Sequence record: PQ511150.1
Direction: 5' to 3' (one strand)
DNA: 64,000 nt
From: Escherichia phage NHEP29
Shown here: piece after piece, positions 44,121-45,378 of the stretch
How positions within the stretch are numbered: the first letter of the stretch is position 1
Layout: each line of letters begins with the position of its first letter
Made by a program: the position numbers and the translations under genes
The notes under the pieces: model-generated
The model's input: only the letters and a program-made list of their open reading frames with translations
The model's database searches: none
Told to the model about the DNA's origin: nothing

Positions 44121-44780
44121 TTAACCTCGATTCATAAATGCATTAAATATTTGGTCATCAACAGAAATTTCTAATTCGACTTCAATTGCTTCAGTCTTTT
44201 CTTCAGGTGGTAATTCGTATCCACACACTACAATTTTTTCATCGATATCAAAATATACAGAAGCAATACGATTAATGTTATTTTCTGTTAAGTCTAAATC
44301 AACATCAACATCTTTTTGACCTACACTTAAAGGATAACTAATACGGGTTATTTTATTATCTTTAACAAAGAGTCCACCAACATACTCTGTGCTACGTTTG
44401 AAGTTTACACGTTTCCGAATTGAAAGATATGACACGTCTTTACCGTGAGCTCGGCTCATAGGACATAATGAATAACTAGAATAAGAGATGTCAAATCCTA
44501 CACCTTCAATATGAGCCAACGTGTCATGATTAAACCAATTATAATCATATGCCAAATCCATTATATTGTAATACGTGAAAGGCACTGGATTAACATCATA
44601 CGTTGTACCTTTAAAATCTGCCCAGGCAACGATTTCGTTATCTTTAACAATTACAAAAATTACACCAATATGATATCCGTTATTATTTTCGTTCGGCGTT
44701 ATATTATAACATTGTGCATTAGGAAATTTACCATATTTAAATGGCGCGTTTTTGTGCATGTAATAAATCATATTATTCAC
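44121..44780 (-). CDS. hypothetical protein (219 aa)
   Basis: ORF; 8-nt overlap with sp. Confidence 0.55.
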   Translation of the reverse strand: MNNMIYYMHKNAPFKYGKFPNAQCYNITPNENNNGYHIGVIFVIVKDNEIVAWADFKGTTYDVNPVPFTYYNIMDLAYDYNWFNHDTLAHIEGVGFDISYSSYSLCPMSRAHGKDVSYLSIRKRVNFKRSTEYVGGLFVKDNKITRISYPLSVGQKDVDVDLDLTENNINRIASVYFDIDEKIVVCGYELPPEEKTEAIEVELEISVDDQIFNAFMNRG

Positions 44781-45066
44781 CTGTGATTTCGGTTACGATA
44801 TCTTTGTTATCGAAATTAGGGTCACAATACAAAACATAATTGTACTGCATGATACCGCCAGACTTAAGTTGTTCAACAACTTTATTAACCATATTAGGAC
44901 GGTCTCGTTTAGTGATGTTCATGATATCAGAGAAGATTTGTTGTTCAACATCTTCTTGATTTGCAGTCATTGACCACTCACAGAGGTCTTTATCATAACC
45001 TGCCGTAACTGGAGCTGGTGCACATGATACTGCAAGTAAGATTGCTGCTAATGATAACTTTTTCAT
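44773..45066 (-). CDS. sp: Spackle periplasmic protein (superinfection exclusion / lysozyme inhibitor)
   Basis: 97-aa ORF with signal peptide; …GYDKDLCEWSMTANQ…KSGGIMQYNYVLYCD… matches T4 Sp. Confidence 0.8.
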   Translation of the reverse strand: MKKLSLAAILLAVSCAPAPVTAGYDKDLCEWSMTANQEDVEQQIFSDIMNITKRDRPNMVNKVVEQLKSGGIMQYNYVLYCDPNFDNKDIVTEITGE

Positions 45067-45129
45067 TTTAACTCCTTAGTTGATTTGATAGGACTACTAT
45101 ACTATAGTCCATCTATAATGTAAACAAGT

Positions 45130-45378
45130 TTATTCTTTTTCGCGAATAATAATTACTTGTTGAGTCTGCTGAGCAGATTTCTTTTCGGCAATGATAGACC
45201 AAATTAAAGTTCCAATCCAACCAACCATCGTCCAGTTAAAGAGTAAAGATACAAAGAAGATTGCTGTTGTGCTTTTTGTGCCACGAATAAGTGCGATTAC
45301 CCAAGGCAACATGTAAATGATGATTGAACCAATACCTGCGATTAAAACCGCTACTGAACTAGCTACGAATAATTCCAT
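45130..45378 (-). CDS. Imm-family superinfection immunity-like membrane protein
   Basis: 82 aa, two TM segments; motif YMLPWVIALIRG…AIFFVSLLFNWTMVGWIGTLIW resembles superinfection-immunity family signature as recalled. Confidence 0.6.
   Translation of the reverse strand: MELFVASSVAVLIAGIGSIIIYMLPWVIALIRGTKSTTAIFFVSLLFNWTMVGWIGTLIWSIIAEKKSAQQTQQVIIIREKE

Follow-up and report, generated by a model that had tools for sequence, protein, structure and literature searches.

A derived position of the imm.1-imm gene pair beside spackle in an RB69-type phage

The subject of this analysis is imm, a putative superinfection-immunity gene of Escherichia phage NHEP29 (PQ511150.1), and the genes that surround it; 'the window' denotes the whole stretch of 64,000 nucleotides (nt) that was analysed. 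The window derives from an RB69-type phage of the genus Mosigvirus; across the region its nucleotide identity to RB69 and to many relatives is 98%. A first-pass annotation had reported, at 44773–45378, a membrane protein of the Imm family placed next to spackle. This observation was borne out; the interval contains two minus-strand open reading frames (ORFs) rather than one, sp and imm, encoding 97 and 82 amino acids (aa) respectively. The genes and the promoter-bearing spacers, or cassettes, at this locus were as follows.

44773..45066, minus strand: sp, encoding Spackle as a 97-aa precursor (PF25676, phrog_1586, identity to T4 Sp, matches in PDB)
45067..45129, minus strand: sp cassette, GTTTAC-N18-TATAGT, with a stem-loop of 10 bp over the -10 element, followed by Shine-Dalgarno AAGGAG; resembles a promoter-early stem-loop (PeSL)
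45130..45378, minus strand: imm, encoding an 82-aa inner-membrane superinfection-immunity protein of T4 Imm type (PF14373, phrog_1039, identity to T4 Imm, conserved residues, hydropathy, AlphaFold2 model)
45379..45439, minus strand: imm cassette of 61 nt, GTTTAC-N18-TATTAT, with Shine-Dalgarno AGAGGA
45440..45808, minus strand: imm.1, encoding a 122-aa predicted lipoprotein (PF17578, homology to T4 Imm.1; named imm.1 in the RB69 record)
45809..45868, minus strand: imm.1 cassette, GTTTAC-N18-TACTAT; resembles the T4 imm.1 cassette, with which it has CTGTTTACAAG and CTATCAACTAC in common

A profile search recovered the superinfection-immunity family, as had been proposed, at about twice the gathering score. 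Imm matched PF14373 (Imm_superinfect) with 57 bits (gathering score 27.9, E = 1.7e-15) over profile positions 1–42 of 42, and phrog_1039 ('immunity to superinfection') with E = 8.6e-30. When aligned with T4 Imm over its full length, 52 of 83 residues were identical (63%, E = 1e-35); this alignment took in the N-terminal helix and the C-terminal QVIIIREKE tail, both of which lie outside the Pfam domain. Judged by sequence, the 82-aa protein is a full-length homologue of T4 Imm, and the family match is far above chance. A word-indexed protein search with Imm returned only 12 relatives, all RB69-type or T4-type, which added nothing on the breadth of the family and left the alignment for AlphaFold shallow.

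The two transmembrane spans attributed to the protein were borne out by the hydropathy profile and by the structural model. The Kyte-Doolittle profile gave hydrophobic stretches at approximately residues 3–31 and 38–64, with R32-G-T-K-S-T-T between them, peaks at residues 8–27 and 44–58, and a dip at R32–T38. The AlphaFold2 model was a two-helix hairpin with long helices at residues 2–32 and 35–81, of moderate confidence (mean pLDDT 72). Imm is therefore predicted to be a small integral membrane protein whose hydrophobic helices flank a short basic loop; T4 Imm has been described with four helices (bioRxiv 10.64898/2026.03.06.709160), which is a finer division than the model of the window protein resolves. 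Most of the expected motif (LP...IA...R...AIF...L...GW...GW) was present, as LP (24–25), IA (28–29), R32, AIF (39–41) and GW (53–54), but in place of the first 'GW' there was 'NW' (48–49), which T4 Imm also has; GW...GW is found in other T-even genera. Residues R32 and W49 were invariant in a six-genus alignment and correspond to R33 and W50 of T4 Imm, where the substitutions R33A and W50A reduce exclusion (bioRxiv 10.64898/2026.03.06.709160).

PF14373 is widespread, and approximately 59 of the 80 loci with an Imm relative that were retrieved from IMG/VR have the domain in non-T4 contexts, without gp43 or sp nearby. The ORF might accordingly encode a generic PF14373 membrane protein that serves some other function (lysis control, for instance) rather than a functional Imm, and in keeping with this it had no match among NCBIfam models (nor had Sp, Imm.1 or a small hydrophobic ORF discussed below) and no Imm sequence was found in PDB. 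However, the 63% identity to T4 Imm extends through regions outside the Pfam domain, the experimentally important residues are conserved, and the partner gene imm.1 has been kept; such a role is very improbable.

The neighbour named by the first-pass annotation was indeed a clear Spackle orthologue, with imm lying 63 nt upstream of sp. Sp matched PF25676 (T4_Spackle) end to end with 145 bits (cutoff 27), as well as phrog_1586, and was 66% identical to T4 Sp. Two PDB entries for 'Protein spackle' were also recovered (6x6o, E = 1.4e-39; 7cn6, E = 1.1e-33). The hydrophobic N-terminus is a signal peptide ending ...PVTA|GYDKD, so that a periplasmic mature protein of 75 aa is predicted, and the 75-residue mature chain of 7cn6 aligned with residues 23–97 of the window protein. 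Both cysteines are conserved, in the motifs CEW and YCD.

Upstream of imm, Imm.1 was a divergent homologue of T4 Imm.1 (32% identical, E = 1e-18) that matched PF17578 (DUF5481) with 37.3 bits (cutoff 27). Its lipobox is L-T-G-C at residues 13–16, where T4 Imm.1 has LAGC. Among the genera sampled, an Imm.1 of the DUF5481 type was found upstream of imm only in T4 and the window phage. Predicted lipoprotein genes adjoin imm elsewhere: ORF039 of Gelderlandvirus STP4-a (1984–2472 of its locus, LAGC) lies upstream of imm, and Gaprivervirus ECML-359 has such a gene (2894–3397 of its locus, LSGC) downstream. Neither showed a DUF5481 match, ORF039 in a profile scan and the ECML-359 lipoprotein in pairwise comparison. 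The ECML-359 protein was considered as a homologue of Imm.1, but only the signal and N-terminal 28 residues resembled T4 Imm.1 (E = 8e-7) and there was no significant match to window Imm.1, so that it was left as 'a lipoprotein'. A lipoprotein partner of Imm may nonetheless be a conserved theme.

The gene order around imm was found to be that of the GenBank record for RB69 (AY303349, 2003), where 61.2-sp-imm-imm.1-61.4-dmd is annotated exactly as in the window. When the sp-imm-imm.1 region was used as a query, 154 phage records covered at least 80% of it; a second query, extending between the sp-imm spacer and the imm.1-61.4 spacer, was matched in full, at 97% identity or more, in 154 of 154 Mosigvirus records. 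Two further contigs from IMG/VR likewise had the sp-imm-imm.1 order with both junction spacers. The layout with imm adjacent to sp is real and fixed in the genus Mosigvirus, and since RB69-type phages share it throughout the genus and it had been annotated before, it is no discovery. Literature searches turned up no paper that discussed or commented on the relocation of imm. The flanks of the block were occupied by three further genes.

44121..44780, minus strand: gene 61.2 (AdfA, anti-DarT factor A), adjoining sp on its downstream side and overlapping the sp stop (PF23813, 398 bits; 66% identical to T4 gp61.2)
45869..46081, minus strand: gene 61.4, the upstream flank of the insertion site (PF23945, DUF7279; 57% identical to T4 gp61.4)
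46083–46274, minus strand: dmd, encoding an antitoxin against RnlA/LsoA

With the known counter-defence genes 61.2 (AdfA) and dmd on either side of the imm.1-imm-sp block, the interval between genes 61 and 41 amounts to an early 'conflict' island. The stop of a 105-aa ORF (46271–46588, minus strand; RB69 ORF040c, phrog_2110), for which there was no Pfam match, overlaps the start of dmd at ATGA; in the RefSeq relative HX01 an 'ADP-ribosyl transferase' is among the features listed under this region.

T4 has two separate blocks, one reading 43, imm.1, imm, 42, beta-gt and the other 41, dmd, 61.4, sp, 61.2, so that imm and sp are 6 kb apart; the position between genes 42 and 43 that had been cited for T4 imm is thus correct. 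In five lineages, represented by T4 (Tequatrovirus), STP4-a (Gelderlandvirus), MX01 (Dhakavirus), ECML-359 (Gaprivervirus) and CkP1, imm is located immediately downstream of gene 43, and 19 T4-like loci among the 80 from IMG/VR have gp43 directly upstream of imm without sp within 3 kb. Only the two RB69-type contigs in that set have sp adjoining imm. In the window, gp43 is encoded at 56752–59463 and imm is 11.4 kb from it, so the synteny of T-even phages is not observed; the position directly downstream of gene 43 is, however, a positional habit of these phages and does not define the family. Conversely, the site beside sp was empty in Dhakavirus UGJNEcP4 and in phage CUA3, where the sp promoter cassette comes immediately after the gene upstream of sp, and in T4 and Dhakavirus this cassette follows directly upon gene 61.4. 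Since imm is adjacent to gene 43 elsewhere and empty sites occur at sp, the position of imm beside sp is derived and specific to Mosigvirus. The unit that moved was the pair of imm.1 and imm, and not imm alone.

Examination of the gene 43 locus showed what occupies the ancestral site. The expectation that a sugar cassette would be found there was correct: the interval from gene 43 to gene 42 contains sugar-nucleotide genes and no imm. Gene 43 is followed by a SIS-domain gene, an ORF of 47 aa, a nucleotidyltransferase fusion of 561 aa, an ORF of 133 aa, a U32-like gene, an ORF of 79 aa and lastly a gene of the thymidylate-synthase family. This cassette has been linked to arabinosylated DNA in RB69 (PMC6024577; PMC13326640). 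The features that bear on the comparison are these.

56076..56711, minus strand: SIS-domain gene, homologue of RB69 ORF055c and first gene of the sugar cassette (PF01380, RB69 annotation; Thomas et al. 2018, PMC6024577)
55936..56079, minus strand: 47-aa hydrophobic ORF at the ancestral imm locus (53–57% identity to T4 and Gaprivervirus homologues)
54209–55894, minus strand: 561-aa ORF, nucleotidyltransferase fusion, a single ORF where RB69 has the split pair ORF053c/052c
51613–52329, minus strand: thymidylate-synthase-family gene at the gene 42 position (24% identical to T4 dCMP hydroxymethylase)
50714–51613, minus strand: 299-aa ORF, a single ORF where RB69 has the split pair ORF047c/046c

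The slot directly downstream of gene 43, held by imm.1-imm in T4, is filled by the SIS-domain gene, and next to it lies the small hydrophobic ORF. T4 has an unannotated homologue of 49 aa (approximately 11225–11377 of the T4 locus, minus strand), which starts at an ATGA overlap with the imm stop, and the Gaprivervirus homologue (2740–2883 of its locus) has the same overlap. In the window the 47-aa ORF also begins at an ATGA overlap, but with the stop of the SIS-domain gene. Its equivalent in RB69, ORF054c, was recorded as 'similar to T4 42-imm intercistronic region'. Since the small ORF was left at its place beside gene 43, the break must have been exactly at the imm stop. These ORFs of 47–49 aa have the consensus ...IYWS.T.P.MIPTLILGW...LQAKYECFN and are not annotated in the T4 reference record.

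No second copy of imm was found in the 64-kb window by tblastn. Weak translated matches near the regA/43 junction, to Imm at 59486–59575 (E = 0.038) and to Imm.1 at 59374–59502 (E = 0.28), were considered as a relic of the pair and then treated as chance, given a stop codon within the translated match and its place on the wrong side of gene 43. Two labels at this locus need comment. Given the 24% identity, and the report that the RB69 homologue of the gene at this position (gp48) is a flavin-dependent 5-hydroxy-dCMP synthase (2026 NAR paper, PMC13326640), 'gene 42' is a positional and not a functional label in the window. The split of RB69 ORF053c/052c has been attributed to a one-base sequencing error in the record (Thomas et al. 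2018, PMC6024577), and the split of ORF047c/046c may be an error of the same kind.

The route by which the pair came to lie beside sp has to be inferred from these comparisons, and two accounts were weighed. Under the simpler of them, the pair moved within a single lineage. Alternatively, imm.1-imm would be a T4-type module that came from a Tequatrovirus-like phage, by acquisition or by exchange, and entered at the sp promoter cassette, while an original imm of Dhakavirus or Gaprivervirus type beside gene 43 was lost when the sugar cassette was remodelled. The identities bear on this directly: window Imm was 63% identical to that of T4, against 51% for Dhakavirus and 55% for Gaprivervirus, while for gp43 (C-terminal 600 aa) the ranking was the opposite, with 61% for T4 against 84% for Dhakavirus and 76% for Gaprivervirus. 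Sp identities ranked as for the polymerase (Dhakavirus 74%, T4 66%). In a neighbour-joining tree of Imm the window phage fell with T4-type Imm (87% bootstrap), and Dhakavirus, Gaprivervirus and Gelderlandvirus fell together (79%). The restriction of the DUF5481-type Imm.1 to T4 and the window phage, whose promoter cassettes are similar, agrees with exchange. Moreover, Dhakavirus has a related sugar cassette and still keeps imm beside gene 43, which shows that the cassette by itself does not force imm out.

Several of these observations can be read otherwise, however. Imm has approximately 80 residues, which puts a sampling error of about 5% on the identities, and the tree is a simple neighbour-joining bootstrap. 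A value of 63% between window and T4 Imm is typical of the divergence between T4 and RB69 genomes (gp43 62%, uvsX 68%) and is exactly what vertical descent predicts. The low identity of Imm.1 to its T4 homologue speaks against recent transfer, and faster evolution or replacement of imm in the branch leading to Dhakavirus and Gaprivervirus would yield the same pattern. The Imm tree hints at exchange of the module rather than a simple local move; acquisition from a Tequatrovirus-like phage together with loss of the original copy was considered a serious possibility, though less likely than its negation. A more general version, held somewhat more tentatively still, is that a lipoprotein gene and imm constitute a self-promoted mobile exclusion module that is exchanged between T-even genera and that in Mosigvirus landed beside sp, creating an envelope-defence island of three genes. 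If this were true, who excludes whom would be set by module swapping rather than by descent.

The spacers at the locus offer a possible basis for such movement. Each of imm.1, imm and sp lies behind its own spacer of 60–63 nt with a T4-type early-promoter motif, GTTTAC-N18-TAYWRT; for imm this sequence motif is situated 35–65 nt upstream of the ATG. Seven copies of the motif occur in 64 kb, where 0.13 matches are expected; every one is on the minus strand, and three precede imm.1, imm and sp. The four other exact matches are at 18609–18638, 23992–24021, 24501–24530 and 35214–35243. In T4 the motif occurs before imm.1 and before sp, while the gap between imm.1 and imm is just 11 nt and lacks it.

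These spacers were compared with PeSL elements, the promoter-early stem-loop cassettes described by Arbiol et al. 2010 (PMC2839356) and Comeau et al. 2014 (PMC4122927), for which the consensus is TTTACW-N17-TAYWAT (PMC4122927). The corresponding sequences are TTTACA-17-TACTAT (imm.1), TTTACG-17-TATTAT (imm) and TTTACA-17-TATAGT (sp), two of the three deviating at one base. A clear stem-loop was present in the sp cassette and absent from those of imm and imm.1. For the sp cassette the predicted folding energy was -13.2 kcal/mol (z = -1.8). This cassette is similar to that of Dhakavirus sp, down to the stem-loop over the -10 element; the sp cassettes of Dhakavirus and CUA3 fold with different stem sequences (z = -2.5 and -2.6). 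The flanked genes show a PeSL-like pattern of presence and absence, the site being occupied in Mosigvirus but empty in Dhakavirus, CUA3 and T4. Modular shuffling at promoter cassettes of this type would fit the data, as far as can be judged from short, consensus-rich sequences. A duplication of the promoter had also been considered on account of an 11-nt identity between the window imm leader and the T4 sp leader (TATAAACATAA), but this was rejected, being too short and inside the shared cassette consensus.

Taken together, the locus is very probably an early-expressed envelope-protection block of an RB69-type phage, in which the imm.1-imm pair occupies the spacer between 61.4 and sp. Three consecutive minus-strand genes, each with its own T4-type early-promoter cassette, would encode small envelope-targeted proteins: Imm.1 a predicted lipoprotein, Imm a putative inner-membrane protein and Spackle a predicted periplasmic protein. 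By homology, Spackle would act first, inhibiting the gp5 tail lysozyme of incoming phages in the periplasm, as T4 data indicate (PMC7677548). Imm would act one step later, at the inner membrane, and keep the genomes of later-arriving T-even phages from entering, presumably by preventing channel formation by the incoming tape-measure protein. T4 Imm co-purifies with gp29(205–518), the transmembrane and helical-bundle part of the tape-measure protein; the loop between helices 2 and 3 faces a hydrophobic patch of the gp29 helical bundle, and when Imm is bound to this domain no translocation channel results (bioRxiv 10.64898/2026.03.06.709160). The gp29 of RB69 is 59% identical to that of T4, and residues 205–355 are well conserved. 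The imm.1-imm pair would itself behave as a self-promoted module bounded by cassettes of approximately 60 nt (GTTTAC...TAYWAT), the kind of element proposed for modular shuffling in T4-type phages.

Five points weigh against this interpretation or parts of it. The literature yielded no experiments on window Imm or RB69 Imm, and exclusion activity rests on homology. The promoter motifs are matches to a consensus and not transcript ends, so that early transcription is likewise an expectation. The analogy with PeSL elements is partial, only the sp cassette having a clear stem-loop. Similarity at the junctions amounts to tens of bases of shared promoter consensus, which cannot prove a route of recombination. 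Lastly, the Imm tree groups the window phage with T4 and not with its closest polymerase relatives, a poor fit to a simple move within one lineage.

The adjacency of imm and sp could also have been selected in its own right, if imm.1-imm-sp were a co-regulated envelope-defence operon giving stronger or differently specific exclusion. All three products appear to be envelope-targeted (lipobox, hydrophobic spans and signal peptide, respectively), there is no terminator-like site between the genes, and the order does not vary among 154 genomes; in several genera imm has a lipoprotein gene as its neighbour, though not always in the same order (imm.1 in T4, ORF039 with LAGC in STP4-a, downstream of imm in ECML-359). 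Such an operon might add to the known total exclusion of T4 by RB69, which occurs in mixed infection for reasons unknown (PMC2993671). However, imm.1, imm and sp are each provided with a promoter cassette and a Shine-Dalgarno sequence, so that co-expression does not need adjacency, and T4 manages both functions with genes 6 kb apart. Members of the genus are 97–99% identical at the locus, and the invariance of the order consequently says little about selection. Imm and Sp, being made after infection, would not account for the exclusion of T4 by RB69 when the two phages infect simultaneously. Selected adjacency was therefore considered unlikely; with a separate promoter for each gene, the proximity of imm and sp is probably without new mechanistic consequence.

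As a discovery the arrangement has little value: the RB69 record has listed the genes, their families and their order since 2003, and more than 150 genomes repeat them. Its comparative value is modest: a cleanly bounded, early two-gene module has changed its address between T-even genera at promoter cassettes, and Imm consistently travels with a lipoprotein gene. In addition, since T4 Imm is reported to bind the tape-measure protein, the Imm and gp29 of RB69-type phages (63% and 59% identical to those of T4) form a natural second pair for the study of exclusion specificity.

The cassettes resemble PeSL elements in being intergenic units of approximately 60 nt with a T4/PST-type motif, in flanking genes that vary between related phages, and in lying within a hyperplastic early region. 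They differ in that one of the three has a convincing stem-loop, one has TTTACG and another TATAGT, and no recombination event was observed.

T4 Imm (83 aa) is like window Imm in size, in hydrophobic pattern, in the residues R33 and W50, and in being preceded by imm.1 with an early promoter. The T4 gene is located between genes 43 and 42, whereas that of the window lies between 61.4 and sp. In T4, imm begins 11 nt after imm.1 and its stop overlaps the small ORF; in the window imm has a 61-nt cassette of its own and the small ORF is at the gene 43 locus. T4 Spackle (gp61.3; 6x6o, 7cn6) is like window Sp in length, signal peptide and cysteines, and in its neighbours, 61.2 downstream and 61.4/dmd upstream. 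The loci differ through the insertion of imm.1 and imm between 61.4 and the sp promoter in the window, and through the stem-loop of the sp cassette, which the window shares with Dhakavirus and which T4 lacks. Finally, imm, imm.1 and sp of RB69 (AY303349, AAP75937–AAP75939) and of other Mosigvirus genomes are like those of the window in genes, order and spacers, with approximately 98% nucleotide identity over 3.7 kb. Between RB69 and the window there is essentially no difference at the sp-imm-imm.1 locus; elsewhere, RB69 has split ORFs where the window has the intact ORFs of 561 and 299 aa.

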